A stretch of DNA of 56,154 nt from Actinomycetota bacterium (GTDB lineage: Bacteria; Actinomycetota; Acidimicrobiia; IMCC26256; VFJJ01): assembly GCA_009886115.1 (NCBI GenBank), contig VFJJ01000100.1, positions 1 through 56,154 of the forward strand, read 5' to 3'. Positions 28,992 to 47,483 of this stretch are shown one piece after another. Positions within the stretch are counted from its first letter, which is position 1. The number at the start of each line of letters is the position of its first letter. The notes under the pieces were generated by a model. The model ran no database searches, had not been told where the DNA came from, and saw nothing but the letters and a program-made list of their open reading frames with translations. The translations under genes were made by a program, and so were the position numbers.

Positions 28992-28996
28992 TGAGG

Positions 28997-29069
28997 TGGC
29001 CAGGACCGGCGTCGATCCGGTGACCTCGCGCTTTTCAGGCGCGCGCTCTACCAACTGAGCTACCCGGCC
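28997..29069 (-). tRNA. tRNA-Phe(GAA)
   Basis: Cloverleaf GGCCGGG...CTGAAAA...ACCGG ATCGACG CCGGT CCTGGCC A; CCA not encoded. Confidence 0.96.
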
Positions 29070-29073
29070 GGGC

Positions 29074-29107
29074 GACCGTCGCCTCCCCCGAGGGGGAGGC
29101 GACGGTC
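29074..29107. repeat. GC-rich hairpin filling the tRNA-Asp/tRNA-Phe spacer
   Basis: GACCGTCGCCTCCCCC-GA-GGGGGAGGCGACGGTC, perfect 16-bp inverted repeat. Confidence 0.85.
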
Positions 29108-29109
29108 AG

Positions 29110-29184
29110 CGGTCCTGACGGGATTTGAACCCGCGGCCTCCGCCTTGACAGGGCGGCGTGCACTCCAAACTGCACCACAGGACC
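29110..29184 (-). tRNA. tRNA-Asp(GTC)
   Basis: GGTCCTG...CCGCC CTGTCAA GGCGG...TTCAAAT...CAGGACC G. Confidence 0.96.
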
Positions 29185-29262
29185 TTGTGGGGGTGATGCC
29201 GGTGCTGCGGATGCTCTCGCTGCGGTATGCGGTGCTCGATGTTGCGGACTGCTGGGACCTCG

Positions 29263-29335
29263 CACCCCCAAGGGGATTCGAACCCCCGTCGCCGCCTTGA
29301 AAGGGCGGTGTCCTAGGCCGCTGGACGATGGGGGC
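29263..29335 (-). tRNA. tRNA-Glu(TTC)
   Basis: GCCCCCA...CCGCC CTTTCAA GGCGG...TTCGAAT...TGGGGGT G. Confidence 0.96.
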
Positions 29336-29479
29336 CTGGTGTGCCTGCAGGGCAGGTGGGATCGTAGCAGGCGCGGGTGCTCGGATCTCCAGCCGATTCC
29401 TGGGTCGGGCCCGGCCACGAATCGGCCGTGGCGATCGGCCCGACGCCCACCGGCACGGTGGCTGTACCCTCGGGCCTCC

Positions 29480-29552
29480 GGGCCGCTAGCTCACTTGGTA
29501 GAGCAACGGACTTTTAATCCGCAGGTACTGGGTTCGATCCCCAGGCGGCCCA
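29480..29552 (+). tRNA. tRNA-Lys(TTT)
   Basis: GGGCCGC...ACGGA CTTTTAA TCCGC...TTCGATC...GCGGCCC A; A-C mismatch at the top of the anticodon stem. Confidence 0.94.
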
Positions 29553-29568
29553 CACAAAATAGCTGGTC

Positions 29569-30125: not shown

Positions 30126-30333
30126 CGCAGCGTCCGCGGTGATGAGCCGGACGCGACCGTCGACCCGAGGCCGCCGCGCTCCGAACACCATCCCTGGACG
30201 ATCCGGTAGCTTGAGCGTCAAGATGTGGCTCGAAGAGTGCGCGCCCTCCGGCGGGGTACGGCAGGTTCGATGCGCAACCTCATGGACGCCTCAGGCCGGC
30301 CTCGGAACACGGTGAGAGCGGAAAGAGCTGCGG

Positions 30334-31431
30334 ATGGCCGTCGTGCGTGACTACTCATTGCTGGGACCAGATGGCAAGCGTGCGATCGAGAGCGGGCTCG
30401 CGGCTGCCCAGTGGTACCGCACGTCTGTTCCTCGCAAGCGAATGAAGGAATTGATGCAGCGGCGAGACGGCCCGGCGATCAGGGACACGGCCATCTGGCT
30501 GGCTCTGCTCGCGGCGTTCGGCGGTACGGGCGCCTACGTCTGGCCGTCCTGGTGGGCGTTGCCGCTGTTCGGCGCGTATGGCGTCCTGTACGGATCGGCG
30601 TCTGACTCTCGGTGGCACGAGTGTGGCCACGGCACCGCCTTCCGCACTCGATGGATGAACACCGCCGTGTACAACTTGGCCTGCTTCATGATCATGCGCG
30701 ACCCCACGGTCTGGCGCTGGAGCCACACCCGCCACCACACCGACACGATCATCGTGGGCCGTGACCCCGAGATCATCTCGATGCGGCCGCCCAAGCTGTT
30801 CCACATCGCCGCGAACTTCCTCGGCCTCTTCGACGTCCCGACGGCCTTTCGCCACATGGCCGTGCACGCCGTCGGCCGGCTCACGGCCGAGGAGGCGTCG
30901 TTCGTCCCCGAGACCGAGTGGTTCAGGGTGTATCGCACGGCCCGGGCCTGGCTGGTCATCTACACAGCCACCATCGCCATCTGCGTGGCGACCGCGAGCG
31001 TGCTGCCGGCGATGCTGATCGGTCTGCCCCGCATGTACGGCGCCTGGCATCACCTGGTGACCGGGCTCACTCAGCACAGCGGCCTGGCCGATGATGTCGT
31101 CGACCATCGGCTCAACACCCGCACGGTCTCCATGAACCCGATCAGCCGGTTCGTCTACTGGAACATGAACTACCACGTCGAGCACCACATGTTCCCGATG
31201 GTTCCATTCCACGCCCTGCCCCGCTTGCACGACGAGATCAAGGGCGACCTCCCGGCCCCGTCACCGAGCATCCTGGCCGCGTTCGGTGAGTTCGTCCCGG
31301 TGATGCTGCGTCAGCGCACCCACCCCGAAGCGTTCATCGAACGCGATCTTTCGAGCTGGGCGGCGGCTGGCGACACTGGTGGGGCGAACCCGAGCGCCGT
31401 GAGCGCCGCAACGACGATGGACGTATCTTGA
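30334..31431 (+). CDS. mocD: MocD-like membrane di-iron desaturase/hydroxylase
   Basis: RDYSLLG..GLAAAQWY, His boxes WHECGH, HTRHH, YHVEHH. Followed by a Rieske ferredoxin and a reductase. Confidence 0.85.
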   Translation: MAVVRDYSLLGPDGKRAIESGLAAAQWYRTSVPRKRMKELMQRRDGPAIRDTAIWLALLAAFGGTGAYVWPSWWALPLFGAYGVLYGSASDSRWHECGHGTAFRTRWMNTAVYNLACFMIMRDPTVWRWSHTRHHTDTIIVGRDPEIISMRPPKLFHIAANFLGLFDVPTAFRHMAVHAVGRLTAEEASFVPETEWFRVYRTARAWLVIYTATIAICVATASVLPAMLIGLPRMYGAWHHLVTGLTQHSGLADDVVDHRLNTRTVSMNPISRFVYWNMNYHVEHHMFPMVPFHALPRLHDEIKGDLPAPSPSILAAFGEFVPVMLRQRTHPEAFIERDLSSWAAAGDTGGANPSAVSAATTMDVS

Positions 31432-31745
31432 TGGCCACGTGGATCGAGGCGTGTGGGGCTGACGACGTCGACGCCGAGGACGTGATCCCCTTCGAGCACG
31501 ACGGTCACCCCTACGCGATCTACCGATCGCCGGCCGACGATTACCACGCGACCGACGGCTGGTGCACCCATGAGCAGACGTTGCTCAAGGACGGGCTGGT
31601 GATGGGCCACATCATCGAATGCCCCAAGCACAACGGCCGCTTCGACTACCGGACCGGTGAGGGAAAGGGAGCGCCGATCTGTGTGAACCTGCGCACCTAC
31701 CCGGTCAAGCTCGAAGGCGGCACCCTGTACATCGACGTCGACTGA
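31428..31745 (+). CDS. mocE: MocE Rieske [2Fe-2S] ferredoxin
   Basis: CTHE...IECPKHNGRFDY, GAPICVNLRTYPV. Confidence 0.9.
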   Translation: MMATWIEACGADDVDAEDVIPFEHDGHPYAIYRSPADDYHATDGWCTHEQTLLKDGLVMGHIIECPKHNGRFDYRTGEGKGAPICVNLRTYPVKLEGGTLYIDVD

Positions 31746-32990
31746 ATGGCATCAGTGACCGAAGACATCGTCATCGTGGGCGCCGGCGAGTGCGGAGCCC
31801 GGGCCGCCATGGCCCTGCGAGAGCAAGGTGCGAGAGGGACGATCACGCTCGTCGGCGACGAGTCGCTCGAGCCGTACGAGCGCCCCCCGTTGTCGAAGGC
31901 GGCCCTCACCGATGACCGGGAGCCGTCGCCCGTCACCGTGTGCGACCGCGCCCGGTTCGCCCATCTCGACATTGCATTCGAACGCGGCGTGGCCGCGACG
32001 ATGCTCGATCGTACGGCTCATGACCTTGTGCTGGCCGACGGGCGACGGCTGCACTACGACAAGGCACTCATCGCCACGGGGGCCCGGGCCCGGGTGCTGC
32101 CAGTGGCAGGAGGACACTCGATACTCACGCTGCGCACCTTCACCGAGTCGGTGGCTCTCCGATCGAGAATGACACCAGGGGCCCGTGTCGGGGTGATCGG
32201 AGCCGGCTTCATCGGACTCGAGCTCGCCGCGAGCGCCGTGACGAGAGGGTGCCAGGTGACCGTGGTCGAGATAGCGGCGAGCGTGATGGCCCGGGTCGTC
32301 CCCGCCGAGATCGCGGCGATAGTAGAAGCACGCCACCGGGATGCCGGCGTCGACCTCCGTCTGGGCACGGGTGTCGAGCACGTCGAGCACGTCGATCGAC
32401 CCCGACCTGCCCAACGACTGGTGCTCGATGACGGGACGACCGTCGATTGCGACGTGATCGTCGCTGGAGTCGGAGCGGTGGCCGACTCGGCCGTCGCCGC
32501 CGCTTCCGGCCTGACGATCGACAATGGGGTGCGTGTCGACCGGTACCTCCGCACAGACGACCCCGATATCCACGCGGCGGGCGACTGCTGCTCGTTTCCC
32601 CACCCGCTCTATGACGATCGACGGATCCGGCTCGAGGCCTGGCGCAATGCCCTCGATCAGGCTGCGGTGGTGGCCCGCAATCTGCTCGGGGCCGACGAGG
32701 CATTTGCTGCGGTCCCCTGGTTCTGGACCGACCAGTACGAACTGGGCCTGCACATCGCCGGGCTACCCGATGCTGCGGTCACGAACGTGGTTCGTGTTCG
32801 GGCCGATGGTGCGACGCTGTTGTTCGGGCTGGGCGCTGACGGGCGGCTCGTCGCCGCGAGCGGAGTCGCGCAGGGAACGGCGATCGCCAAGGACATTCGG
32901 ATCGCAGAGATGCTCATCGCTCAGCGCACCCTCCCCGACCCGAGCGCGCTCACGAATCCGGCAGTAACCCTCAAGTCCTTGCTGGTGTGA
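31746..32990 (+). CDS. mocF: MocF-like ferredoxin reductase
   Basis: GAGECG, PYERPPLSK, ATG, GAGFIGLE, AAGD, RLEAWRNA, PWFWTDQY. Confidence 0.85.
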   Translation: MASVTEDIVIVGAGECGARAAMALREQGARGTITLVGDESLEPYERPPLSKAALTDDREPSPVTVCDRARFAHLDIAFERGVAATMLDRTAHDLVLADGRRLHYDKALIATGARARVLPVAGGHSILTLRTFTESVALRSRMTPGARVGVIGAGFIGLELAASAVTRGCQVTVVEIAASVMARVVPAEIAAIVEARHRDAGVDLRLGTGVEHVEHVDRPRPAQRLVLDDGTTVDCDVIVAGVGAVADSAVAAASGLTIDNGVRVDRYLRTDDPDIHAAGDCCSFPHPLYDDRRIRLEAWRNALDQAAVVARNLLGADEAFAAVPWFWTDQYELGLHIAGLPDAAVTNVVRVRADGATLLFGLGADGRLVAASGVAQGTAIAKDIRIAEMLIAQRTLPDPSALTNPAVTLKSLLV

Positions 32991-33103
32991 GCAATGACGG
33001 GTCCAGGTCCGAAGGGGTGGCGTTGCGAACCCGGGGCCAGAGGTCGGAGCATCGAGCGGCGCACCACTCGACAGGCGTTGCACGCGTTGACGATACTGTG
33101 GCC

Positions 33104-34003
33104 GTGACCTCTCGTTCACACCACCCGGCGGGGGCTCTCGCCGAGCACGCCGATCCGGTCCTGCTCACCCCTGAACAGGCAGGCTGGGGGTACTCGGGGC
33201 TGCGCGTCGTTCGTCTCGATGCCGATATCGCCCGCACGTTCCCGACGGGCTCCGACGAGATGATCGTGCTGCCCCTGTCTGCGACGGGCGTCACGATCGT
33301 GACCGCGAGCGACGAGTTCCACCTCGAGGGCCGCTCGAGCGTCTTCGGCCGTGTCACCGACTTCGCCTATGTCGGACGTGACACCGAGCTGTGGTTGTCC
33401 TCGGCGTCCGGGGGTGAGGTCGCGCTGTGCACGGCCCGAAGCGATCGCCGCCTGCCGCCGAAATACGGTCCAGCTGACGCCGTCGCTGTCGAGATACGAG
33501 GTGCTGGCCCGGCAACTCGCCAGGTGACGAACTTCGCCAGCCCCGAAGTGTGGGACCACGCCGAGCGCATCATGTGTGTCGAGCTCCTCACACCCGACGG
33601 CAACTGGTCGAGCTACCCACCTCATCGCCACGACGACTCGCCGGAATGCCCGGTGAACAACGAGGAGATCTACTACTTCCGGATCGGCCGGGCCGGTAGC
33701 ACCGACGTCGAGCCGAACGGCTTCGGACTGCACCGCACCTATACCCCCGACGGCGCGGTCGACGACAATGTGGTCGTGCGCGATGGTGACGTGTACCTGG
33801 TACCTCGGGGTTACCACGGGCCCTGTGTTGCGGCCCCGGGTTACACCATGTATTACCTGAACATCCTCGCGGGTCCGGGCGGGACCCGGTCGATGGCGTT
33901 CTGCGACGATCCCGCCCACCACTGGGTACGTGACTCCTGGACCGGCATGCCCGTCGACCCGCGCTGTCCGATGACGTCAGCGTCTGGGCTCGTCGTACGC
34001 TGA
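33104..34003 (+). CDS. iolB: 5-deoxy-glucuronate isomerase
   Basis: AGWGYSGL, GNWSSYPPHRHD, EEIYYF, VPRGYHGP, YYLNILAGP. Start could be 32987. Confidence 0.92.
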   Translation: MTSRSHHPAGALAEHADPVLLTPEQAGWGYSGLRVVRLDADIARTFPTGSDEMIVLPLSATGVTIVTASDEFHLEGRSSVFGRVTDFAYVGRDTELWLSSASGGEVALCTARSDRRLPPKYGPADAVAVEIRGAGPATRQVTNFASPEVWDHAERIMCVELLTPDGNWSSYPPHRHDDSPECPVNNEEIYYFRIGRAGSTDVEPNGFGLHRTYTPDGAVDDNVVVRDGDVYLVPRGYHGPCVAAPGYTMYYLNILAGPGGTRSMAFCDDPAHHWVRDSWTGMPVDPRCPMTSASGLVVR

Positions 34004-34103
34004 GCGGCGAGAACAGGGCCGCACAGGCTCACCACACAGCCCCACCATGCAGCCCGCCATGCAGTGCCACCATGGAGCCCACCACCTCACGACCTGAAAG
34101 CCG

Positions 34104-35036
34104 ATGCCCCCGATGTCATTCGATCTCCTCTCCCGTGTCGCCGGAGCCCCCATCTCGTGGGGTGTGTGCGAAGTGCCCGGCTGGGGGCTCCAGCTCCCGG
34201 TCGATCGCGTGTTCAGCGAAGCGGCCGCGCTCGGTCTCACGGCTATGGAGCAGGGCGCGCTGGGATGGCTCCCGAGTGATCCTGCCGAGCAGCGCGCGAT
34301 CTTCGATCGTCACGGGATGGAGCTGATCGGAGGGTTCGTCCCGCTGGTGCTCCACGATCCGTCGCGGCTCGACGAGATGCGGGCCGAGGCCGCGCGCATC
34401 GCCGACGCCATGGTGGCGGCCGGGGGTCGGTACTTCGTGACTGCCGTGATCGCCGACACCGACGACTGGTCGCGCCCGGCCCTCGACACCGGCGCCTGGT
34501 TGGCATTGTTCCGCGGCCTCGACGAGATCGGTCGGGTGGTTGCCGATCACGGTGCCCTCCAGGTCGTTCACCCGCACGTGAACACGCTCATCGAGACGGC
34601 TGCGGAGTTCGATCGGTTCATCGACGGTTGTTCGGCCCCGGTGTGCTTCGACACCGGTCACCTGGCGATCGGGGGCGCCGACATCGTCGCTCTCGCGCGG
34701 CGGTATCACGAGCGCATCGGCCTCGTTCACCTGAAGGATGTCGACGCGTCCGTGGCCCAGCGCCAGCGCTCCGGTGAGCTGACCTTGATGGAAGGGGTCC
34801 AGCTCGGGCTGTTTCCCCCCTTGGGTGACGGCATGGTCCCGATCGCCGAGGTCATCGAGATACTGGTCGGGGCGGCATACTCCGGGTGGTACGTCATCGA
34901 GCAGGACCAAGCCATTGCCGATCATCCGGCCGCGGGCGCCGGGCCGGTCCTCGGCGTCGCCCGAAGCATCGAATACCTCCGTGGTGTCGAGCGCCAGCTC
35001 AGCGCTGGCCCCGGCCCGACGCCGGCGGGTTCGTGA
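34104..35036 (+). CDS. iolE: Inosose dehydratase-like TIM barrel (IolE/MocC)
   Basis: GAPISWGVCEVPGWG, HPHVNT, DTGHL, HLKDV, WYVIEQD. Confidence 0.82.
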   Translation: MPPMSFDLLSRVAGAPISWGVCEVPGWGLQLPVDRVFSEAAALGLTAMEQGALGWLPSDPAEQRAIFDRHGMELIGGFVPLVLHDPSRLDEMRAEAARIADAMVAAGGRYFVTAVIADTDDWSRPALDTGAWLALFRGLDEIGRVVADHGALQVVHPHVNTLIETAAEFDRFIDGCSAPVCFDTGHLAIGGADIVALARRYHERIGLVHLKDVDASVAQRQRSGELTLMEGVQLGLFPPLGDGMVPIAEVIEILVGAAYSGWYVIEQDQAIADHPAAGAGPVLGVARSIEYLRGVERQLSAGPGPTPAGS

Positions 35037-35992
35037 GTCGAACGACGATGCCGGCCCTCGAGCTCCTGACCGTCGGACGCATTTGCGTCGACCTCTACCC
35101 TGAGCAACTCCACGTCCCGTTGCGTGATATCCAGTCGTTCCGCAAGTCGATCGGAGGCACCGCGACGAACGTCGCCGTCGCGTGCGCCCGTCTCGGTCAT
35201 CGCACTGCCGTGTTCACCCGGGTCGGCACCGACGCGTTCGGGGAGTACATCGAGTGGTCGCTGTCGGAGCGATTCGGAGTCGACACCTCCTTCGTCGGTC
35301 GTGATCCTGAGATGCTGACGCCCCTTGCCTTCGCCGAGCTGAGCGACCCCGGTGAGCCCGGGATCATCTTCTATCGCCAGCCCCAGGCACCAGACATGCG
35401 CATCGAGCCCAGCGAAGTCGACCGCGAGGTCGTTGAGTCGGTCCCGATCCTGTGGTTTCCGACCTCGTGCCTCTCGGCCGAGCCCAGCCGATCGACAATC
35501 CACGAGCTGCTGTCATGGCGTGACCGTCGCGTTCACACGATCCTCGATCTCGACTGGCGTCACCAGTTCTGGAGCGACCCGTCCGACGCGACCCGTGAGC
35601 TCGATCGGGTGCTCGACCACGTGACGATGGCGATCGGTAACCGGGCCGAATGCGACGTGGCGGTGGGCGAGACCGATCCGCAGCGGGCGGCCGAGGCCCT
35701 CCTGGCCCGAGGGCTCACCGCGGCGATCGTGAAGATGGGCGCCGATGGTGTGCTGGTGGCGACCCGTGACGGCGCGATGGAGCGGATCGCCCCGCATCCA
35801 GTCGATGTGGTGTGCGGGCTCGGCGCCGGCGACGCCTTCGGAGGAGCCCTGTGTCACGGGTTGCTCGCCGGTTGGGATCTCCCGGCGTGTGCCCGTGCCG
35901 GAAACGTGGCGGGTGCCATCGTGGCCTCTCGCTTGATGTGTGCCGATGACATGCCCTACCTCGAGGAGATCGATGCCCTTCTTGACCGATGA
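35033..35992 (+). CDS. iolC: 5-dehydro-2-deoxygluconokinase
   Basis: GRICVDLYP, GGTATNVAVA, LDLDWR, GLGAGDAFGG. Confidence 0.9.
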   Translation: MSRTTMPALELLTVGRICVDLYPEQLHVPLRDIQSFRKSIGGTATNVAVACARLGHRTAVFTRVGTDAFGEYIEWSLSERFGVDTSFVGRDPEMLTPLAFAELSDPGEPGIIFYRQPQAPDMRIEPSEVDREVVESVPILWFPTSCLSAEPSRSTIHELLSWRDRRVHTILDLDWRHQFWSDPSDATRELDRVLDHVTMAIGNRAECDVAVGETDPQRAAEALLARGLTAAIVKMGADGVLVATRDGAMERIAPHPVDVVCGLGAGDAFGGALCHGLLAGWDLPACARAGNVAGAIVASRLMCADDMPYLEEIDALLDR

Positions 35993-36869
35993 GCGTTGGG
36001 CCGAACTCATCGCCCGTCGCGGCGAGCGGCCCTGGAGCGCACGCGAGGCGCTGCGTGGTCGCCGCCGCCGCCCCTTGCTCACCGATGGCCGGATGTTCAT
36101 CGTGGCCGCCGATCACAGTGCACGCGGGATCCTCGGCATCCCGAGCGATCCGTACGCCATCGCCGACCGTCGGCGGACCCTGGAGGCGCTGCTGAACGCG
36201 CTCGACAATCCCGGTGTCGACGGGGTTCTCGGCAGCGCCGACATCCTCGAAGAGCTGGCCCTGCTCGGGGCGCTCGACGACAAGCTGGCATTCGGCACCA
36301 TGAACCGTGGTGGCCTGGCCGGCGCGAGCTGGGAGCTCGACGACAGGATGACGGCCTACGACGTGGCATCGATCGCCGAGAACGGCCTCGACGGCGCCAA
36401 GGTGCTGTTGCGCATCGCCGATGACGATCCGGCCACGGCCTCGGTGCTCGAGGCCTGTGCCCAGGCGGTGTCGGAGTGCGCCCGGCGAGGGCTGCCGATC
36501 CTGGTCGAGCCTCTGCCGTTCCACCGCGATGCGTCGGGTGCGGCCAAGCTGCTCGACGACGACGATGCCTTGCTCAGAGCCGTGGGCGTGGGCGCGGCCC
36601 TCGGAGGCTCATCGAGCGCGACCTGGTTGAAGGTGCCGGCATCGAAGGACCCGGCCCGGATGCTCTCGACCACAACCTTGCCGGCGTTGATTCTCGGGGG
36701 CACCCCAGGCTCCGACCCCGAGGCCACGTACGCCTCCTGGGCCCGCGCGATGGATGTTCCGAACGTCCGTGGCCTCGTGGTCGGCCGCTCCTTGCTCTAC
36801 CCAGCCGACGGGGATGTCGCCGGGGCCATCAAGCGGGCATGCGAGATCGTCCGTCCATCGGGCGGATGA
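35973..36869 (+). CDS. Class I aldolase-like TIM barrel (Cgl0159-like, probable IolJ substitute)
   Basis: AADHSARG, MNRGGLAGASWELDDR, TWLKVP (Schiff-base Lys), GLVVGRSLLYP. Follows iolC. Confidence 0.8.
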   Translation: MPFLTDERWAELIARRGERPWSAREALRGRRRRPLLTDGRMFIVAADHSARGILGIPSDPYAIADRRRTLEALLNALDNPGVDGVLGSADILEELALLGALDDKLAFGTMNRGGLAGASWELDDRMTAYDVASIAENGLDGAKVLLRIADDDPATASVLEACAQAVSECARRGLPILVEPLPFHRDASGAAKLLDDDDALLRAVGVGAALGGSSSATWLKVPASKDPARMLSTTTLPALILGGTPGSDPEATYASWARAMDVPNVRGLVVGRSLLYPADGDVAGAIKRACEIVRPSGG

Positions 36870-36885
36870 TCGTATGGTTGACGGC

Positions 36886-38067
36886 ATGAAACGGCTCGGG
36901 ATCGGCGTCATCGGGTTCGGGTGGATGGGTCAAGCCCACAGCCGGGGTTGCCGGCGGGCCCCGAGCTACTTTCCTGACCGTGGGTATCAGCCCGATCTTG
37001 TCGTGGTCAGTGACACGTTGGAGGACCGACGCGACGACGCCGTCTGCTCGTTTGGATTCCGGGAGGCCGTCTCCGACTGGCGGGTCGTCGTCGAGCACCC
37101 TGACGTCGACGTCGTGTTCGTCGCCGCGCCCAACATGCTGCACGTCGAGATGGTGGAGGCCGCTGTTACCCACGGTAAGCACGTATTTTGTGAGAAGCCG
37201 GTAGGAGGCACGCCAGCCCAGACCGTCGTTGCGGCCCGGGCCGCTCGAAACGCAGGCGTGATCACGGGGGTCGGATACAACTACCGGTGGACGCCGCTCC
37301 TCCAGTACGCCAAGCAACTCATCGACCAGGGTGTGATCGGGGAGATCACGAACTACTACGGCCGATTCTTCTCGATGTACGGGTCTGATCCACTCGGCCT
37401 CCTGTCGTGGCGCTTTCTCATCGACCAGGCGGGGCACGGTGCATCGACCGACATCCTCAGTCACACCGTCGACCTTGCGCACTATCTCGTCGGCGACGCC
37501 GCCGGACCGATCACCCGGCTGGTCGGCACGGGCGAGACGTTCATCAAGCAGCGGCCACTGCCGACCGGGGCGGGAACGCACTACGACCGCGGCCAGCCCG
37601 GTGACCCCACGGGTGCGGTCACCAACGAGGACTACATCGCCTGCCTGTGCGCCTTCGGGAACGGTGCCCGCGGCACGTTCGAGGCATCGCGTTCGATGGT
37701 CGGTCCGGAGAGCCAGAACCTGCTCGAGGTCTTCGGGACCCAAGGTTCGGTCCGGTGGAACTTCGAGCAGATGAACCAACTCCAGGTGTACGTCGCCGGC
37801 GAGGAGCTCCACACCGGCTTCACCAACGTCTACGGAGGAGACCGATTCCCCCACCACGGTAACTTCGTACCGGGCAGCGCCAACGGGATCGGGTTCGAGG
37901 ACCTGGTCTGCATCGAAGACCATGAGTTCCTCGCCTCGGTCGCGGCCGGGCGTCAGCACTCGCCGGGCTTCACCGAGGCGCTGGCCTACGTGGGCGTGCA
38001 GGATGCGATCATGCGATCCTGGGCGTCAGGTCGTTGGGAAGATGTTGTCTCGCTGTTGGAGGATTGA
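36886..38067 (+). CDS. Gfo/Idh/MocA family cyclitol dehydrogenase
   Basis: GFGWMG, CEKPVG, GYNYR, DILSH. Confidence 0.88.
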   Translation: MKRLGIGVIGFGWMGQAHSRGCRRAPSYFPDRGYQPDLVVVSDTLEDRRDDAVCSFGFREAVSDWRVVVEHPDVDVVFVAAPNMLHVEMVEAAVTHGKHVFCEKPVGGTPAQTVVAARAARNAGVITGVGYNYRWTPLLQYAKQLIDQGVIGEITNYYGRFFSMYGSDPLGLLSWRFLIDQAGHGASTDILSHTVDLAHYLVGDAAGPITRLVGTGETFIKQRPLPTGAGTHYDRGQPGDPTGAVTNEDYIACLCAFGNGARGTFEASRSMVGPESQNLLEVFGTQGSVRWNFEQMNQLQVYVAGEELHTGFTNVYGGDRFPHHGNFVPGSANGIGFEDLVCIEDHEFLASVAAGRQHSPGFTEALAYVGVQDAIMRSWASGRWEDVVSLLED

Positions 38068-38070
38068 TAT

Positions 38071-39945: not shown

Positions 39946-40751
39946 GCACGAACGACGGCGTCTATGTCATCAACGGCGGCACCCAGGGGCTGGGCGAGGC
40001 GACGGCCCGGGTGCTGGCAGCCCGGGGTGCGACCGGGCTGGTACTCGCCGGAAGGAGCCGCGACCGGGGTCAGGCGCTGGCCGACGAGCTGACCGGTGCC
40101 GGTTCCCCCACGATCTTCGTCCCGTCCGACCTCGCCGATCCCTCCTCGCCGGAGGCGGTGGTAGCGGCGGCCGACAAGCAGTTCGGGGTCGTCCATGGGC
40201 TCGTCAACGTCGCTGCTGTCACCGATCGGGCCACCGTGTGGGAGCTCACGGGCGACCACATCGATCAGATACTCAGCGTCAACGTGCGGGCGCCGATGCT
40301 GGCCTGCCGGTACGCCGCCGAGGTCATGCGCCGGGAGGGGGTCGCCGGCTCGCTCGTCAACATCGGCTCGACCAGTGGATACGGCGGGCAGCCCTTCCTC
40401 GTGGCGTACAGCGCATCGAAGGCGGCCTTGGCCGTCGCCACCAAGTCGCTCGCCTACTCACTGATGAGGCATCACATCAGGGTGAACCAGATCAACCCGG
40501 GATGGATGAACACCGAGTCGGAGGACGCCACCCAACGCCGTTGGCACGGCGCCACCGACGGATGGCTGGAAGCGGCGGGAGCAACCCAGCCCCTGGGTCG
40601 ACTACTCGAGCCGGCCGAGGTGGCTCGCGTCATCGCGTTCTATCTGTCCGATGAGAGCGGCATCATGACCGGCAACGTCGTCGACTACGACCAGTCGGTC
40701 ATCGGCGCTGGTGACGCCCCGAAGCCGACCGAGGCCGAGACGCCCCGGTAG
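39942..40751 (+). CDS. Short-chain dehydrogenase/reductase
   Basis: NGGTQGLG, YSASK, NQINPGW. ATGA-coupled to iolD. Confidence 0.9.
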   Translation: MSTNDGVYVINGGTQGLGEATARVLAARGATGLVLAGRSRDRGQALADELTGAGSPTIFVPSDLADPSSPEAVVAAADKQFGVVHGLVNVAAVTDRATVWELTGDHIDQILSVNVRAPMLACRYAAEVMRREGVAGSLVNIGSTSGYGGQPFLVAYSASKAALAVATKSLAYSLMRHHIRVNQINPGWMNTESEDATQRRWHGATDGWLEAAGATQPLGRLLEPAEVARVIAFYLSDESGIMTGNVVDYDQSVIGAGDAPKPTEAETPR

Positions 40752-40789
40752 CCCCGCATTTGCCGGTAGACACGTTCGTCAGTGAGCCC

Positions 40790-41079
40790 ATCGGCGGTAG
40801 AGCGAGCGGCCGGTCGGACGCGTCGTTGAGGTTGGTCACCAGCCGGCCGCCGATGTCGACGAGCAGGACGGCGTCCTGGTTGTAATCGGCCATGCAGAGC
40901 ACACGGACCCGGTCGGAGATCGGAGTCCACTGCCGGTCTGCGAGCACGGTGATGTCGAACCCGTCACCCTCGAGCCAGCAGTAAGGACTGCCTTCGATCC
41001 ACGGATCGGTGACGAGCACGGGGCCGCGGTCGTGCACGATCAGCGTGGCATTACCGATCGTCTCGAATCCGAGGTCCAC
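40790..41079 (-). pseudogene. Metallo-beta-lactamase-fold gene remnant with internal deletion
   Basis: GFETIGNATL...LVTDPWIEGSPY jumps to ...DYNQDAVLLVD...NLNDA with no HxHxDH motif in between, then degenerates. Confidence 0.55.
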
Positions 41080-41127
41080 AGGGCCAGCTCCCGCTGCCGG
41101 CCGAGCGCTCCGGCAGGCGTTCGCGGG

Positions 41128-42354
41128 CTAGCGCCATGCGTCAAGAGTGTCACGCTGCGTCACTGTGGTGCGCCGGCGGTCGGCGTGGTCGGACAGCTCG
41201 GTGCGGAGCCGATCGGGGGACCAGTGCTCCACTACCGCCCGGCCCAGGAGCTCGGCTTGCGACTCGGGCATGAGGCCGTCGATGGGCTGGTCGTGGTCGA
41301 GGTTGGTGGGGAAGGGATACCCGTCGACACAGGCCGTGACGGCGTTACGGAGCGACTGCTCGTCGAGCCCACCGGCGCGCCGATCGAGCAATGCCGGAAA
41401 GATGGCGTTGGCCATCTTCTGCCGGTCGACGCTCTCGAGCGCCCGACCGAAGGCCGACGAGACCTGGAGCAGGTTGCCCATCCGCTTCACGTCGGTGGTG
41501 CGGTTCTCGCCGGCGGCGTGGAACATCGCCGGGTTGAAGAACACGGCGTCGCCCCGGGCCAGCGGCAACTGCACGTGGTGACGCTGGAAGTACTCCTTGA
41601 ACTCAGGTCGGCGCCAGGCCAGGTATCCCGGCGCGTATTTCTGCGCGTACGGCAGGTACATCGTGGGGCCGGTCTCGACCGGCATGTCGCAGTGGGCGAT
41701 CGCACCCTGGAGCGTCAACACCGGTGAGAGCGCATGCACGTGCGCGGGGAACTGCTCGGCATCGGCGTCGGACAAGAAACCCAGGTGGTAGTCGCGATGG
41801 GGGCTCTGGGCCTCGCCGCCCGGGTTCACGACGTTGATCTGGGACGTGACCTGATACCAGCGTCCCAGCCACGACTCGGAGACCAGGGCGATGATGTCGC
41901 TGGCGTAGTAGTCGACGAACGTCTCCGGGGCGGCCAGCGCCAGCTTCTCGAGCGCGTTCCAGACCCGGTCGTTGGCCCCGGGCTTGGCGTAGTGGTCACC
42001 GGACCGAGCGCCCCGGGCGTGCTGGTCGTCGATCATGGCCCGGAAGGCCTCGGTGGCCCGATCGACGACGTTCGCGTCGAGCGCGTGCGTGAACACGGCG
42101 ATCCCCGGGCCGTCGAGGAACACCCGGGCGAGCTCCGCCTGCACGACCCGGCGGGTGGACGGCCGACCGGCGAGGGCGGCCCGGAGCTCGGGGGCGTGGT
42201 AGATGGGCACGCGGTGATCGATCGCCGATGCGTGCGGTGTGTCGGCCAGATCGGTGGGCTGCTCGACCAGCGCCGCGAATTCGGAGATGTCGCACTGCTC
42301 GGTCGTGAAGTAACCCGAGTCGGCCCGCTCGGACGCGGGGCTCGGCCGGTCCAT
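41128..42354 (-). CDS. Phytanoyl-CoA dioxygenase (PhyH) family Fe(II)/2OG oxygenase
   Basis: QSPHRDYH (HxD), GDAVFFNPAMFHAAG (distal His), RMGNLLQ. Coupled to iolG. Confidence 0.85.
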   Translation of the reverse strand: MDRPSPASERADSGYFTTEQCDISEFAALVEQPTDLADTPHASAIDHRVPIYHAPELRAALAGRPSTRRVVQAELARVFLDGPGIAVFTHALDANVVDRATEAFRAMIDDQHARGARSGDHYAKPGANDRVWNALEKLALAAPETFVDYYASDIIALVSESWLGRWYQVTSQINVVNPGGEAQSPHRDYHLGFLSDADAEQFPAHVHALSPVLTLQGAIAHCDMPVETGPTMYLPYAQKYAPGYLAWRRPEFKEYFQRHHVQLPLARGDAVFFNPAMFHAAGENRTTDVKRMGNLLQVSSAFGRALESVDRQKMANAIFPALLDRRAGGLDEQSLRNAVTACVDGYPFPTNLDHDQPIDGLMPESQAELLGRAVVEHWSPDRLRTELSDHADRRRTTVTQRDTLDAWR

Positions 42355-43379
42355 CAGGTGATCTCCTCCACCGACACCGGTCGTCGCTCGGCCACTGATC
42401 GGCCGGCTGCCAGACCGAGGACCAGGGGGGCCCGGCCGTCAGCGGGGCCGACCGGAGATGGTGTGCCGTCGCGCAGCATCCCCACGAACGCCTCCCATTC
42501 AGACAGATAGCTCTGCGTGTACCGCTCCAGGAAGAAATAGGGGAGAGCGGCAACTCGACCTCCGCGCCCGTCGCGCACCGTCGTGGTGGTGACCAGAGGA
42601 TTGTCGGACGACACGATGCCCTGAGAGCCGAACACCTCGACGCGCTGGTCGTAGCCGTACACGGCCTGCCGGCTGTTGTCGATGACGGTCATGGCCCCGT
42701 TGGCGTGGGTCAGCACGATCACCGTGGTGTCGAAGTCGCCGGCCTCGCCGATGGCCGGATCGACGAGCACGGCACCCTTGGCGTATACCTCCAAGACCTC
42801 GCTCCCGGTCACGTAACGAGCCATGTCGAAATCGTGGATGGTCATGTCGCAGAAGATGCCGCCCGAAACCGCGATATAGGTCAGGGGCGGCGGGGCCGGG
42901 TCGCGGCTGGTGATGCGCACCACATGCACGTCACCGACGTCGCCGGCTGCGACCCGGTCGCGAACCTCGCGGTGGCTCGGATCGAAGCGCCGGTTGAAGC
43001 CCACCATGAACGGAACGCCGGCCGCGGCGACGGCCTCCAGGCCCCGGTCGACCTCGGCGAGGTTCAGGGAGAGCGGCTTCTCGCAGAAGATGGGCTTGCC
43101 GGCCCGGGCTGCAGCCACGATCAGATCGACGTGCGTGTCGGTCGAGGTGCAGATCGCAACGGCGTCGACGTCGTCGCGTTCGATGAGCTCCTGGGCCGAC
43201 GCCGCGGCGTCGAGCCCGAGCTCGGCGGCGACCGCCGAGGCCGCCTCACCGAGAACGTCGTACACCACCGGGCACGTCGCGCCCGGTGCCCGGAGGGTGA
43301 GCAGCTCGGCGTGCATGCGTCCGATCCGGCCGCAGCCGAGCACCGCGATCCTGATCGGCGGTGGTGCGGTCGTTGTCAT
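42354..43379 (-). CDS. iolG: myo-inositol 2-dehydrogenase
   Basis: [54 protein letters not shown]. Confidence 0.9.
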
Positions 43380-44209
43380 CGTCCGGACAGCTCGCGCTGC
43401 AACGCCTCGAGCTCGGCACCTCCGGCCATCAGCCGGGTGAGCTCGGTGATGGTGATCTCGTCCTTGGCGAAGTTACCCATCGAGTGGCCCCGGTTGAGGA
43501 TGAGAAACCGGTCGCCGACGGGCCAGGCGTGCGCCGGGTTGTGGGTTATGAAGATCACGGCCAGGCCGCGGTTGCGGGCCTCGAGGATGTAGCGGAGCAC
43601 GACGCCCGACTGCTTGACCCCGAGCGCCGATGTCGGCTCGTCGAGGATCAGCACCCGCGCGCCGAAGTACGCGGCGCGGGCGATGGCCACCGATTGCCGC
43701 TCGCCACCCGAGAGCGTTCCCACCGTCTGATCGGGATCGCGGATGTCGATCCCCATCTTGGCCAGCTCCTCGACGGCGACCCGCTTGGCCTCGGGGGTGT
43801 CGATCCAGCGGAAGATCCCGAAGCCGCGGAGCGGCTCTGCGCCCAGCCAGAAGTTCCGCCATACCGACATCAACGGGACGACGGCGAGGTCCTGGTAGAC
43901 GGTGGCGATACCCCGGTCGAGGGCGTCACGGGGTGAGGCGAAACGCATGGGCACACCGTCGAGGAGCACCTCCCCCTCGTCGTGCTGGTGCACGCCCGAC
44001 AGGATCTTGATGAAGCTCGACTTGCCGGCCCCGTTGTCGCCCAGGACGCACGTGACCTCCCCGGCGTTGACGCTCGTGGTGACGTCCTGGAGAGCGATGA
44101 TGGTGCCGTAGAACTTCGAGATGTTGCGGAGATCGAGGATCGAGGCATCCCTTGCGGCTTCTGGTTCACTCGTCTGCGGCTCGATCATGGGTCTGCCTTC
44201 CGTAGCCAT
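43376..44209 (-). CDS. Sugar (inositol) ABC transporter ATP-binding protein
   Basis: [25 protein letters not shown]. Confidence 0.93.
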
Positions 44210-44215
44210 CGTCCG

Positions 44216-46288
44216 TCACCTCGACCGCTCGGCCTTGTTGCGGACGTAGCGATTGGCTATCACCGCTCCCAGGAGGATGATGCCGAGCAGCAGGAAGCGC
44301 CAGTTGGTGTTCCAGCCGGCGAACGGGATGCCCTGGGTCGACATCGACATGATGAGCGAACCGATGGCCCCGCCGGCCGCCGACCCGTAGCCGCCGGTGA
44401 GCTCGTTGCCGCCGACAACGGCGGCGATTATGTACTCGAACTCCTCGCCGTCACCGACGTTGGCCTGCACGGAGTTGAGGCGAAAGGCGATGAGCATCCC
44501 GGTCAGCCACGCTGCTCCGGAGACCATCATGAACAGCGTGGTCTTGGTGCGCGCCGCCGGGACACCGACGGCCCGGGCGGCTTCCTTGTTGCCGCCCACC
44601 GCGTAGATCCAGTTGCCGAACCGGGTGCGGGTGAGGAGCCAGGTGCCGAACAACGCGAACAGCATGAACCACAAGATCGAGATGCGGTAGCGGATCACGC
44701 CCGGGAGCGTGTCGACCTCCTCCTGGGTGGAGAACAGCATCTTCACGAACGTGGCCACCACCAGGGCGGCGAGGCCGGCGACCGCAACCCGCTTGCCTAG
44801 GCGATCGGCGGTCGGGTCGGCCGCGCTGCGGGCCTCGAAGCGATAGCTCAGGATGGCCGAGGCCAGCACCAGTAGGGCCATCAGAAGCATGACGGTGAAC
44901 AATCGGCTCCGGAACTTCTCGGACGTCGACTGCGACCGGATGAAGAAGGCCACGCCTACGATGGCGACGGTGGTGATCGTCGACACGACCAAAGCGCCCA
45001 GCTTGCCCCGCTTGGCCGCCTGCCCTTCGGACACGAGCAGGGCGATGGCCCCGCTGACAACGAGCACGACGAAGACGATCGTCCGAGCCGCCTGGCGGGT
45101 CATGAGGAATCCGACAGCAGGTAGGGCCGAGATGCCGATCCCGGCCAACGGAGCGAGCATGGGGACCTTGCCCGCGGCCACCAGCACCGCCAGCACTCCG
45201 GCCACACCGATGCCGAGCACGAACACCGCTCGCGAGAAGCCCGAGCCGAAGAAGAAGTCGACCGACTTGTCAGACTTCGAGTCGAAGACCGCCGTCAGCA
45301 CCGAGCCGGCAACGATCGCCGCGATGCCGATGCCGAGCAGCCGGGCGGCCTGGCCCTCGATGGCCACGATCCGGTCGCGCGCGCTGGGCTCGTAGCGCCA
45401 CTGGCCCAACCCGGCCATGGCGACGATCAGACCGAGGCCGGTGACAGCCCCGAGAACGGCGTTGACGCCGACCCCGTCGGTGCCGAGCAGGCCGATGAAG
45501 CCGCCCAGAGCGAGGGCCGCGCCGACCAGCAACGTAAGCAGACCCTTGGGATTCCTGGCGCGGCGACGGGTGTAGCTCATCTCCATCACGCCGGCGATCA
45601 CCAGGACGAACGCGGTGACGAGGAGGACGACCCACAACTTGTCCCGCCCTCCCCAGACGTGGGAGTTCCGGATCCAGTCCTCGGCGAAGATCTTGCGCCA
45701 GAAGCCGTATCCCTTCGCTTCGTCGAGGCCTTCCACGGTGACCTGGCCGGCGAAGAGCTTGGTGAAGCCCAGCTTGGCGCCGATGAGGATGAAGAACGTG
45801 CCCAGGGTGACGATGAAGCTGGGCAACCCCGTGCGCTCCCGGAGCGTGCCGTTGAACCAGCCGATCATCATCGCGAACGCGAAGGTGAGCGGCACCACGA
45901 TGTGGAGGCTGAAACCGGCGCCCGACGAAGCGCCGGCGATCTCACCGGCCTCCTTCGACAGCAGGATGACCAAGAGAGCGGTCGCCCCGGTGAGTGACCC
46001 TGACGAGAGGTCGAACTCACCGCCGATCATCAGCAATGACACGGCGACGGCCATGATGCCGAGCGACGCGGCGACGTCGAGGTAGTTCGCCGTACCCGCC
46101 GCGGTGCCGAACACGTCGGAGACCGCCCAGAAGAAGGCCCACACCGCCGTCGTGCCCACGAGAGCGCCGATCTCGGGCCTCACGAGCAGACGTTGGATTG
46201 GTCCCCGGTGCGAGACCCGCTCGTCGCGCCCGGGCATCTCGCCCGGGACGCTCTCAGCCGCCGTGAGGTCTGTCGATACGCTGGCCAC
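44216..46288 (-). CDS. Sugar ABC transporter permease with large membrane insertion
   Basis: GGEFDLS, LPSFIVTLG at the N-terminus; RFGNWIYAVGGN..AARAVG, AAVVGG at the C-terminus; about 690 aa. Confidence 0.88.
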   Translation of the reverse strand: MASVSTDLTAAESVPGEMPGRDERVSHRGPIQRLLVRPEIGALVGTTAVWAFFWAVSDVFGTAAGTANYLDVAASLGIMAVAVSLLMIGGEFDLSSGSLTGATALLVILLSKEAGEIAGASSGAGFSLHIVVPLTFAFAMMIGWFNGTLRERTGLPSFIVTLGTFFILIGAKLGFTKLFAGQVTVEGLDEAKGYGFWRKIFAEDWIRNSHVWGGRDKLWVVLLVTAFVLVIAGVMEMSYTRRRARNPKGLLTLLVGAALALGGFIGLLGTDGVGVNAVLGAVTGLGLIVAMAGLGQWRYEPSARDRIVAIEGQAARLLGIGIAAIVAGSVLTAVFDSKSDKSVDFFFGSGFSRAVFVLGIGVAGVLAVLVAAGKVPMLAPLAGIGISALPAVGFLMTRQAARTIVFVVLVVSGAIALLVSEGQAAKRGKLGALVVSTITTVAIVGVAFFIRSQSTSEKFRSRLFTVMLLMALLVLASAILSYRFEARSAADPTADRLGKRVAVAGLAALVVATFVKMLFSTQEEVDTLPGVIRYRISILWFMLFALFGTWLLTRTRFGNWIYAVGGNKEAARAVGVPAARTKTTLFMMVSGAAWLTGMLIAFRLNSVQANVGDGEEFEYIIAAVVGGNELTGGYGSAAGGAIGSLIMSMSTQGIPFAGWNTNWRFLLLGIILLGAVIANRYVRNKAERSR

Positions 46289-46451
46289 TGTCTCCCCGGA
46301 CGACGAGATCCGACATCGGGAGCCGGGGTCCATGACCCCGACCCCCGATGAAGGGATCGTGCTTCGCTAGTTGCTCTGTGCTAGCACCGAATGCCTTGGC
46401 ACTGCCTCGACTCTCGGATACCGGGATTCCCGGGCTGATCCGAGGACCCGA

Positions 46452-47483
46452 TCAGCGGGTGCCGGCCTCGGCCAGGGCCTTGACCGCAGCCACGTTCTCG
46501 GTGGTCACGAAGCCCGGGCCGGTGAGGATGGGCAACCCGCCACCGGCGATGTTCAGGTTCGTCTTCTGGAGGTACATGAGCACGACGGGCAGGTACCCCT
46601 GGAGGTACTGCTGCTGGTCGATGGTGAAGGCGACGGTCCCGGCCTCCAATGCGGAAATCAGGTCGGGGGAGACGTCGAAACCGGCGATGACGAGCTCGCG
46701 ACCGGCAGTCTCACCGGCGGCGATCGCCCGCAGCGGCAGGTTCGGCCCGGTGCCCATCACGGCATCGATGTCGGGGTCGGCCTGGAGCAACGCGGCGATC
46801 TGGGCCTCCTGCTCGGTGGGGTCGGCGTCGAGGCCGACGAACTCCGAGACCACATCGCCGCCGAAGGTGGTGGCGAGACCCTCACAGCGCTCCTCGAGCG
46901 CGATGTTGGTCTGCTCCTGGCGAGCGCACAGGATCTTGGTCGCGCCCAAGGTGTTGAAGCGCTCTCCGGCACCCTCGCCGGCCACGGTCTCGGTCTGGCC
47001 GACGTGGGTGATCGCGCCCAGTTCCTTGTAGTTGTTCAGGCCCGAGTTGAGCGTGTACAGCGGGATGCCGGCGGCGACGACGGCCTTGGCCGCCGCTTCG
47101 AGACCGGCCGGGTCGGCCAGCGAGATGGCGATCCCGTCGGAGCCCGCGGCGATGGCCGCCTCGATGGCCTGCGACTGGGCCTCGGCGTCGTTGTTCGCTC
47201 CGAAGTACCTCACGGTGACGCCGAGGTCGGTCCCCGCCTGCTCGGCCCCCTTCTGAGCAACCGACCAGAACACCCCGTCGTCGCCGTGGGTGATCACGTC
47301 GAACGTGAAGTCGGTCGCCTGGTCGACCTGGACCGTGTCGCCCGACGTGTCGCCGGACGTTGCCCCCGCGGTGTCGGCCGAGGTGTCGCCGGTCGCGCCG
47401 CTGTCGTCATCATCGTCACCGCACGCGGCGGCGAAGAGGCTCAGCGCCAGACCGAGCGCCAGTACGTACTTGAGCTTTCTCAT
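46452..47483 (-). CDS. Sugar/inositol ABC substrate-binding lipoprotein
   Basis: Lipobox FAAAC, ITHG..FWSV, ALEERC, GFD, DQQQYLQGY, TGPGFVT. Confidence 0.9.
   Translation of the reverse strand: MRKLKYVLALGLALSLFAAACGDDDDDSGATGDTSADTAGATSGDTSGDTVQVDQATDFTFDVITHGDDGVFWSVAQKGAEQAGTDLGVTVRYFGANNDAEAQSQAIEAAIAAGSDGIAISLADPAGLEAAAKAVVAAGIPLYTLNSGLNNYKELGAITHVGQTETVAGEGAGERFNTLGATKILCARQEQTNIALEERCEGLATTFGGDVVSEFVGLDADPTEQEAQIAALLQADPDIDAVMGTGPNLPLRAIAAGETAGRELVIAGFDVSPDLISALEAGTVAFTIDQQQYLQGYLPVVLMYLQKTNLNIAGGGLPILTGPGFVTTENVAAVKALAEAGTR

Follow-up and report, generated by a model that had tools for sequence, protein, structure and literature searches.

Gene content and organization of the locus

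The window analyzed here is the entire 56 kb contig VFJJ01000100.1 (56,154 nt), part of a 5.4 Mb, 95.6% complete genome of an uncultured member of the Actinomycetota. Between positions 30334 and 47483 it carries a locus of fifteen genes, in which a MocDEF-type oxygenase system and an unrelated PhyH-family dioxygenase are joined to genes for the catabolism and uptake of inositol. A unit on the + strand (30334-40751) consists, in order, of mocD, mocE, mocF, iolB, an iolE-like gene, iolC, an aldolase gene, a Gfo/Idh/MocA dehydrogenase (Gfo) gene, iolD and a gene for a short-chain dehydrogenase/reductase (SDR). Converging on it, a second unit on the - strand (47483-41128) encodes a solute-binding protein (SBP), a permease, an ATPase, IolG and the PhyH protein. 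The open reading frame (ORF) list, Pfam and NCBIfam place all fifteen genes at the same position, order and orientation, and the gene content, co-orientation and convergence described in the original prediction are borne out. For IolB, IolC, the aldolase, Gfo, the SDR, the permease and the SBP, the likely true start lies downstream of the point where the ORF opens. Neighboring genes on both strands overlap by 4 bases or 1 base or are separated by gaps of no more than 100 nt, mocF and iolB being packed without a gap, and this tight spacing suggests two convergent operons. The G+C content of the window is 66-72%.

Contigs from a single sequencing run of another study tile positions 28695-48500 at ~99.6% identity to the window. 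One 13.2 kb record of that run corresponds to 31161-43650, reaching from mocD through iolG and spanning the MocF/IolB boundary, and another spans the interval between tRNA-Lys and mocD. Because the region is tiled by contigs of an independent run, its arrangement is not an assembly artefact. DNA of the window was found in freshwater-sediment metagenomes of three studies, at a share of at least 0.42 of the sampled words; runs with small word shares (X7, X9-X21) were excluded from this statement of habitat. An RNA library yielded contigs with zero differences to part of MocD (326 nt) and to the Gfo/IolD junction (293 nt), along with near-identical contigs for the permease and the SBP, the SBP contig being the deepest; this run (X8) contains only ~0.15 of the window words. 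Since DNA can occur in such libraries, these contigs are a weak hint of expression of the locus.

The MocDEF system

The mocD-like gene (30334..31431, + strand) encodes a 365 aa protein of the FA_desaturase/AlkB/XylM superfamily of membrane di-iron oxygenases (PF00487, 122.8 bits). Its three His boxes, HECGH (residues 95-99), HTRHH (131-135) and HVEHH (281-285), are invariant in 16 homologues, and the mean column identity in the MocD family alignment is 73% across phyla. It is followed by a mocE-like gene (31431..31745, + strand) for a 104 aa Rieske [2Fe-2S] ferredoxin, which carries the CTH...CPKH motifs and passes the MocE-family model (TIGR02377, 150.8 bits versus a cut-off of 136.15), and by a mocF-like gene (31746..32990, + strand) for an FAD/NAD(P)H-dependent ferredoxin reductase (Pyr_redox_2, 207 bits, and Reductase_C), whose best curated model is HcaD (344 bits, under the cut-off of 450). 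The three His boxes, the Rieske protein and the reductase named in the original prediction are all confirmed by motifs and domain models. That prediction had also singled out clustering with true lipid desaturases as the result that would speak against it. No such grouping was found, the DesB and CrtR models giving 29 bits and 20.7 bits against cut-offs of 500 and 475, and MocD was rejected as a lipid desaturase.

MocD and MocE form one ORF in two related loci (L127 and L130). A model of the MocD-MocE complex scored 0.66, as compared to 0.31 for the best control, a mark of 0.66 being reached by 116 of 157 solved complexes and by 2 of 215 mismatched pairs. Three runs agreed in 100% of contacts with a partner pLDDT (a per-residue confidence measure) of at least 87, and the modeled Rieske loops (47-49 and 63-68) contact MocD residues 98-101, 128-136 and 287-289, beside the His boxes. 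Both the fusion in relatives and the complex model indicate that MocD and MocE act as a pair.

MocD of the window is 63-66% identical to genes of the mocD clusters on Sinorhizobium meliloti pSymB and Rhizobium etli p42e. In those clusters the MocD homologue is preceded by a LacI regulator gene and followed by genes for a ferredoxin annotated as "MocE family", an FAD reductase and a PanB-like protein. The putative link of MocDEF to the rhizopine system runs through this identity to rhizobial mocD-cluster genes and not through the MocD of a proven rhizopine strain; the cut-off of the rhizopine SBP model was reached in none of five rhizobial genomes, and none of the loci was labeled a true moc locus. 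The rhizopine genes mocR, mocA, mocB and mocC were not found in the window, nor was a GntR/MocR-type regulator between 28.7 and 48.5 kb.

Genes for inositol catabolism and uptake

The iolB gene (33098..34003, + strand) encodes a 5-deoxy-glucuronate isomerase (TIGR04378, 263.6 bits versus 205). Its ORF opens at 32987 and its true start is probably a GTG at 33098 or 33104. The sequence of a sister strain is longer by 14 nt at 33039, an insertion that would be intolerable in a coding region and that places the start downstream of that position. The next gene (34104..35036, + strand) encodes an IolE-like TIM-barrel protein (PF01261), a probable inosose dehydratase, which had been called iolE in the original prediction. 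On TIGR04379 it reaches 156 bits where 290 are required. No other gene of the genome is IolE-like, and among solved structures the protein comes closest to the IolE entries 9ZMU and 3CNY. It is followed by iolC (35033..35992, + strand; start candidates 35033 and 35048), encoding a 5-dehydro-2-deoxygluconokinase (TIGR04382, 339 bits versus 300), and by the gene for a Cgl0159-like aldolase (35973..36869, + strand; PF22649, 348.8 bits). The aldolase passes no IolJ model, and it also sits between IolC and IolB in iol operons of the same class; it is presumed to substitute for IolJ.

The Gfo protein (36874..38067, + strand; Pfam) belongs to the scyllo-inositol/levoglucosan dehydrogenase group. Its nearest solved relative is 6A3F (E = 3.6e-74), the scyllo-inositol dehydrogenase 5YA8 matches at 5.4e-53, and its score on the levoglucosan dehydrogenase model (291 bits) is under the cut-off of 650. 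The unit is completed by iolD (38071..39945, + strand; TIGR04377, 816 bits versus 715), present in a single copy in the genome, and by an SDR of the PRK06198 type (39942..40751, + strand; NF004847, 336.5 bits versus 240). The opposing unit contains iolG (42354..43379, - strand), encoding an inositol 2-dehydrogenase (TIGR04380, 420.4 bits versus 355). The IolA/methylmalonate-semialdehyde dehydrogenase gene (710 bits) lies on a separate contig, C142, and the claim that the locus holds a "full" inositol pathway fails on this point. The locus is nonetheless the organism's sole inositol-catabolic gene set.

Uptake is represented by an ATPase with a single nucleotide-binding domain (43376..44209, - strand; PF00005), a permease (44216..46333, - strand) and a CUT2-type solute-binding lipoprotein (46452..47483, - strand; PF13407), the signal peptide of which ends in FAAAC. 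The 705-codon permease ORF is about twice the usual length, with partial PF02653 matches at residues 82-246 and 420-690; a tandem duplication was ruled out, as the N- and C-terminal halves do not resemble each other. The SBP is 40% identical (4.5e-54) to 4RU1, an actinobacterial SBP that we take to bind myo-inositol, and its model superimposes on that structure with a TM (template modeling) score of 0.96 and a root-mean-square deviation of 1.3 Å. Its top NCBIfam match is the rhizopine SBP model NF052284, at 202 bits and under the cut-off of 420. Relative to the sister strain and to a contig of the RNA library, the SBP gene lacks 12 nt at 47334 and has 12 nt added at 47369, a paired, frame-preserving local variant in the low-complexity linker that follows the lipoprotein signal.

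Distribution and genomic context of MocD

Relatives of MocD occur in 386 plasmid records and in at least 585 species-level genomes. The nearest named ones come from metagenome-assembled genomes (MAGs) of the Ilumatobacteraceae and Acidimicrobiales (73-77% identity), in keeping with the earlier statement that the host is not a rhizobium; no MocD was detected in 60 relatives of the same order. In a quick maximum-likelihood tree, MocD of the window falls in a six-member Actinomycetota clade (SH-aLRT 97) that stands apart from the Alphaproteobacteria; the tree is midpoint-rooted for drawing only and carries no claim as to donor or direction of transfer. The host is an actinobacterium in a broad sense, with the Acidimicrobiia as its probable class. 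The neighbors of MocD in the Ilumatobacteraceae MAG loci L005, L007 and L008 include genes for xanthine-dehydrogenase-type molybdoenzymes and a luciferase-like monooxygenase, and at L008 a trypsin-like peptidase gene is found near MocD-MocE, as it is beside the window locus.

The gene-neighborhood survey of MocD proposed in the original prediction shows that the linkage to iol genes recurs in other genomes; such loci are numerous, and the one in the window is not an oddity of its host. Neighbors were counted at 67 MocD loci of at least 15 kb. MocE was present at 62 of these, a LacI-type regulator at 57, MocF at 52, an ABC ATPase at 43 and a CUT2 SBP at 41. An IolG-like protein (at least 40% identity) was encoded at 34 loci, as was a PanB-like protein (e.g., L006:12630-13421 and L149:9597-10403), a PRK06198-type SDR at 21, and IolB, IolC or IolD at eight.

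The co-occurrence of MocD with iol genes in the host's own class is the strongest evidence for the association. MocD was found in 10 and IolD in 32 of 350 other genomes of this class (one of the 32, G562, is unpublished and enters this count only). IolD is present in five of the 10 MocD-positive genomes and in 27 of the 340 without MocD (one-sided Fisher p = 8.5e-4, a value that overstates the association, since relatedness keeps the genomes from being independent). In four of the five genomes with both proteins, MocD-MocE is encoded between IolD/SDR and IolG within a single iol operon.

Sixteen IolD loci from same-class genomes that lack MocD or carry it elsewhere define the backbone of this operon, with a recurrent set of TIM barrel, SBP, permease, ATPase, IolC, aldolase, IolB, Gfo, IolD, SDR and IolG. 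The window has the same set, its members 53-78% identical to their best counterparts (73-78% for the ATPase, as compared to the ATPases of same-class iol operons), rearranged as two convergent units. To this backbone the window adds MocDEF, placed first in one unit, and PhyH, placed last in the other. The embedding of MocD-MocE in the iol operons of relatives, together with the co-occurrence of PhyH and IolD described below, makes both oxygenases look like optional additions to the iol operon. The SDR and Gfo, which had been counted as "extra dehydrogenases", are regular members of the iol operon in this class and occur in MocD-free operons as well. The SDR was also considered as a MocD-specific partner and ruled out, as 6 of the 16 iol loci in which MocD is not adjacent likewise have it beside IolD.

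The PhyH-family dioxygenase

The last gene of the - strand unit (41128..42354, - strand) encodes a 408 aa member of the PhyH family of Fe(II)/2-oxoglutarate (2OG) dioxygenases (PF05721, 116 bits), and its start and the stop of iolG share one base. The residues of the iron site and the 2OG-binding arginine (H186-x-D188, H279 and R291) are invariant in the alignment. The structural model (pLDDT 83.9) resembles generic PhyH-type dioxygenases in Foldseek (E of at most 6.6e-13, TM ~0.6, 14-21% identity). A sequence search of the PDB returned no matches at E of 0.001 or below, the profile search gave weak local matches only, of hydroxylase or desaturase type, and the ESM Atlas search returned "PhyH family" clusters only. 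A close relationship to phytanoyl-CoA hydroxylase, ectoine hydroxylase or KanJ was not seen in the sequence, profile or fold searches.

Homologues of ~390 aa with 62-66% identity are common in Streptomyces; genomes with this Streptomyces-type PhyH fall in the phylum of the host and outside its class. PhyH adjoins an IolG-like gene in all six long loci from other Actinomycetota, with an SDR in three, a TIM barrel in three and ABC components nearby in five. PhyH was identified in six of the 350 same-class genomes, all six of which also carry IolD (p = 3.7e-7, likewise overstated because the genomes are related). In G503, PhyH follows IolG immediately and is the last gene of the iol operon, the position that it also has in the window; in G626, genes for a PurU-type formyltransferase-fold protein, an aldolase, a PanB-like protein and PhyH lie just upstream of an iol-MocDE operon; in the other three carriers named (G598, G629 and G406), the neighbors of PhyH are uninformative. 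Only one of 80 MocD loci contains PhyH (L069, in the order TIM-PhyH-IolB-LacI-MocD-MocE). PhyH looks like a second, independent addition to inositol catabolism, and its link to inositol genes is a fresher part of the finding than that of MocDEF.

A conserved, MocD-free module of PhyH, an IolG-like protein, an SDR or TIM barrel and a CUT2 ABC system was seen at loci L094-L098 and L100, with GntR and LacI regulators nearby at L094. No description of such a module was found.

Proposed function of the locus

The locus can be read as a class-typical iol operon that would have been divided between two convergent units and would have gained two accessory oxygenases. For these oxygenases we infer the following substrates and reactions. 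MocDEF may form a three-component monooxygenase, in which electrons would pass from NAD(P)H via MocF and MocE to MocD, with MocE docking on the cytoplasmic His-box face of MocD. The ABC system would import an O-methyl-inositol (of the pinitol, ononitol, sequoyitol, quebrachitol or bornesitol type), and MocD would hydroxylate its methyl carbon to give a hemiacetal, whose breakdown would yield formaldehyde and a free inositol isomer. IolG, the scyllo-type Gfo and the SDR could then funnel inositol isomers into inosose, from which the IolE-like protein, IolD, IolB, IolC and the Cgl0159-type aldolase would produce dihydroxyacetone phosphate and malonate semialdehyde; IolA, encoded elsewhere, would complete the route. 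PhyH, translationally coupled to iolG, may act on another decorated cyclitol. The original prediction had described the oxygenases as "opening" inositols, and nothing suggests a ring opening.

The rhizobial precedent is the proposed demethylation of 3-O-methyl-scyllo-inosamine by MocDEF (Bahar 1998, as cited in passages of PMC13434037 and PMC5132102). Outside the rhizobia, mocDEF has been reported in print from Pseudomonas syringae of woody hosts, as mocDEF-xylA2 (Nowell 2016, excerpts of PMC5132102), and a 2026 review terms its function "unresolved" (PMC13434037). Around rhizobial mocDEF, Sullivan 2013 inferred "an inositol derivative" as ligand or substrate (excerpt of PMC3538637). According to excerpts of PMC5789663, Mimosa root exudate, in which pinitol was the top component (145 uM), raised the mocDEF homologues of Rhizobium mesoamericanum 1.5-2.1-fold, a mocB-like ABC operon 4-4.7-fold and also iolB/C/A, a response that its authors read as rhizopine catabolism; as support for O-methyl-inositols as substrates, this induction is circumstantial. 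Passages of PMC12675435 and PMC12081619 cite a 2018 Master's thesis on pinitol catabolism in S. meliloti, and one of the two gives D-chiro-inositol as an intermediate, implying demethylation; the thesis may already assign this step to the mocDEF homologues. No paper linking pinitol or other methyl-inositols to MocDEF-type enzymes, and no assayed bacterial enzyme that removes the methyl group of a methyl-inositol, was found in full-text searches.

O-demethylation of methyl-inositols is the role that we favor for MocDEF, at a probability of slightly over one half, on the basis of the rhizobial precedent, the iol linkage, the PanB- and PurU-like neighbors of relatives and the transcriptome under pinitol-rich exudate. 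A PanB-like gene (ketopantoate hydroxymethyltransferase family) travelling with MocDEF fits the handling of a released one-carbon unit. In the O-methyl-cyclitol proposal as first made, family identity and iol linkage have held up, and the putative O-methyl-cyclitol substrates are extrapolated from the rhizopine model.

Several observations weigh against this role. The closest MocD relatives (L005, L007 and L008, 75-77% identity) are MocD-MocE pairs with no iol gene near, five of the 10 MocD-positive genomes of the class are without IolD, and G310 and G598 carry MocD away from their iol genes; given these IolD-free carriers and distant positions, the MocD family may serve other substrates. MocF is missing from four same-class MocD-MocE operons. 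Pfam and sequence scans of the window detected neither a PanB-like gene nor a regulator, nor any gene linked to formaldehyde or folate, and the genome as a whole encodes only an ordinary PanB, on contig C145. The fold matches of PhyH are generic only. On the side of the literature, the role of MocDEF in rhizobia is itself a genetic model in the passages cited above, and an enzyme assay of any MocDEF family member was not found in full-text searches. Erwinia degrades pinitol via iol genes without demethylation according to excerpts of PMC9788770, where only vanB genes were tested, which implies that an oxygenase is not obligatory.

The oxygenases might instead act on cyclitols with other decorations, hydroxylating deoxy-inositols (of the quercitol or viburnitol type) or C-methyl-inositols to compounds that enter the pathway. 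The AlkB/XylM-type di-iron and the Fe/2OG superfamilies both have C-H hydroxylation as their core chemistry, the PhyH matches are of hydroxylase or desaturase type, and the comparative data show linkage to iol and not chemistry. However, O-demethylation is the only functional precedent for MocDEF in the excerpts cited, where it was also pinitol-rich exudate that raised the homologues, and the PanB-like and PurU-like neighbors in relatives point to a released one-carbon unit; other decorations are unlikely as the target of the two oxygenases.

An amino-cyclitol function, on scyllo-inosamine or 3-O-methyl-scyllo-inosamine, would have MocDEF demethylate its substrate and PhyH deaminate it oxidatively to inosose. 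KanJ, a PhyH-family enzyme, deaminates an aminoglycoside oxidatively, and the PhyH of the window has an intact 2OG/Fe site and is coupled to iolG; KanJ is nevertheless absent from its sequence, profile and top fold matches. The passing MocE-family score and the rhizopine model as best NCBIfam match of the SBP would suit this function, but the SBP reaches 202 bits of the required 420 and has 4RU1 as its best solved relative, and a MocR-type regulator and the mocA/mocC set were not found in the window. The DNA occurs in freshwater-sediment metagenomes. Rhizopine producers are rare, and the at least 585 species-level genomes with MocD seem to extend far more widely. As predicted, the locus contains no aminotransferase, the sole one in the window being a DegT-family protein (6876-8210) of an unrelated sugar-modification cluster. 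This absence does not exclude amino-cyclitols, since a 2OG dioxygenase could deaminate oxidatively; for the other reasons given, we consider them quite improbable substrates.

That MocD is a lipid or hydrocarbon desaturase or hydroxylase and only a chance neighbor of an ordinary myo-inositol operon would suit its Pfam family (FA_desaturase), the beginning of the locus right after four tRNA genes with possible mobile-element remnants, its detection in 0 of 60 relatives of the order and the iol-free surroundings of its nearest relatives, but is made very improbable by desaturase models that reach at most 29 bits against cut-offs of 380-500, by the gapless packing of mocF and iolB, by the fused MocD-MocE inside the iol operons of four other genomes and by the IolG-like genes at half (34/67) of the MocD loci.

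Alongside O-demethylation by MocDEF, we tentatively suggest that the ~390 aa PhyH type could be a second, non-homologous cyclitol-tailoring oxygenase, either an O-demethylase for a methyl-inositol that MocD rejects or a deoxy-inositol hydroxylase, served by the cassette of IolG-like protein, SDR or TIM barrel and CUT2 ABC system with which MocDE(F) is combined elsewhere; on present evidence this is rather doubtful. If true, genomes from the Acidimicrobiia to Streptomyces-like organisms would carry exchangeable entry modules through which decorated inositols reach the iol pathway.

Legumes, conifers and many stress-tolerant plants have O-methyl-inositols (pinitol, ononitol, quebrachitol and others) among their most abundant soluble carbohydrates, and these compounds reach soils and sediments in bulk. 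MocDEF in an iol operon, with an unrelated second oxygenase, offers two candidates for the methyl-inositol demethylation step, and suggests that the trait extends well beyond the rhizobia, into Actinomycetota of sediments. Synthetic rhizopine signaling between crops and inoculants assumes that few soil bacteria attack such molecules, an assumption on which the breadth of the MocD family bears. These questions are more easily addressed in culturable carriers (S. meliloti pSymB, R. etli p42e and Mesorhizobium) than in the uncultured host.

Relationship to known systems

The window shares with the rhizopine MocD-MocE-MocF system of S. meliloti L5-30 and R. leguminosarum (Bahar 1998 and 2000, via excerpts of PMC5132102, PMC13434037 and PMC10107442) the same components in the same order, and both feed the iol pathway. 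It differs in having no mocR, mocA, mocB or mocC, in an SBP that scores under the rhizopine cut-off, in the direct joining of its genes to iolB onward and in its actinobacterial host. MocD is 62-66% identical to the MocD of the LacI-mocDEF-PanB-like clusters of S. meliloti pSymB, R. etli p42e and Mesorhizobium and of the P. syringae mocDEF-xylA2 cluster. Clusters of this kind have the LacI regulator (57/67) and often the PanB-like gene (34/67), of which the window has neither, and most of them include only an IolG-like protein, an SDR and an ABC system, whereas the window also carries the iol genes for IolB, the IolE-like protein, IolC and IolD.

The fused MocD-MocE proteins of actinobacterial iol operons (G271, G480, G578 and G626) come from the same host class and lie in the same iol backbone, with SBPs 54-61% and ATPases 73-78% identical to those of the window. 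The fused proteins themselves are 47-50% identical and are encoded between IolD/SDR and IolG without MocF, while the window has three separate genes at the head of an operon. As compared to canonical iol operons (Bacillus subtilis iolABCDEFGHIJ and the Corynebacterium glutamicum iol cluster), the window shares IolG, IolD, IolB, IolC and an IolE-like TIM barrel, and departs from them in its Cgl0159-type aldolase, unlinked IolA, ABC uptake instead of a permease, and two added oxygenases. The PhyH protein has the fold and the HxD...H plus Arg site of known members of its family (phytanoyl-CoA hydroxylase and the fungal meroterpenoid enzymes TlxJ, AndA, SptF and FtmOx1); the window type is longer (~390-408 aa versus ~280), at most 21% identical to solved members, and set in an iol context.

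Flanking regions and other genes of the window

The left border of the locus is formed by a tRNA cluster (28995..29553; ARAGORN) with tRNA-Phe, -Asp and -Glu on the - strand and tRNA-Lys on the + strand. Inspection by eye suggests an integrase-like C-terminal fragment (~28650-28950) on one side of the cluster and an HNH-like remnant (~29925-30209) on the other; neither has a Pfam match, and both are impressions only. A direct repeat marking an attachment (att) site was not detected between the tRNA cluster and the far end of the locus. Pfam and sequence scans of the 28.7-48.5 kb interval identified no regulator, and none of the ORFs at 28.5-30.3 kb and 47.5-48.3 kb matches a Pfam family. Scans for promoters (3 promoter-like sites versus 1.4 expected) and terminators (2 terminator-like sites versus 5.1 expected) gave nothing usable.

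The gap between the two convergent units contains a 126 aa ORF (40699..41079, - strand) that has no Pfam match and is probably a gene remnant. In the sister strain, 1078 letters stand in place of window positions 40766-41126 (359 bases); the greater part of a gene located after PhyH is probably missing from the window.

Elsewhere in the window, the flagellar genes fliF, fliG and fliH are found at 8937-12287. They adjoin the sugar-modification cluster (1701-9136), which encodes two GT2 glycosyltransferases, two methyltransferases, a GNAT protein, the DegT/StrS-family aminotransferase and an FdtA-like isomerase, and might serve glycosylation. On the other side, 2.4 kb past the locus and after genes for a trypsin-like peptidase and an MFS transporter, lies a small carbohydrate set (49899-54877) encoding an FGGY kinase, a TIM-barrel protein, a Gfo/Idh/MocA oxidoreductase and a YdjC-like protein.

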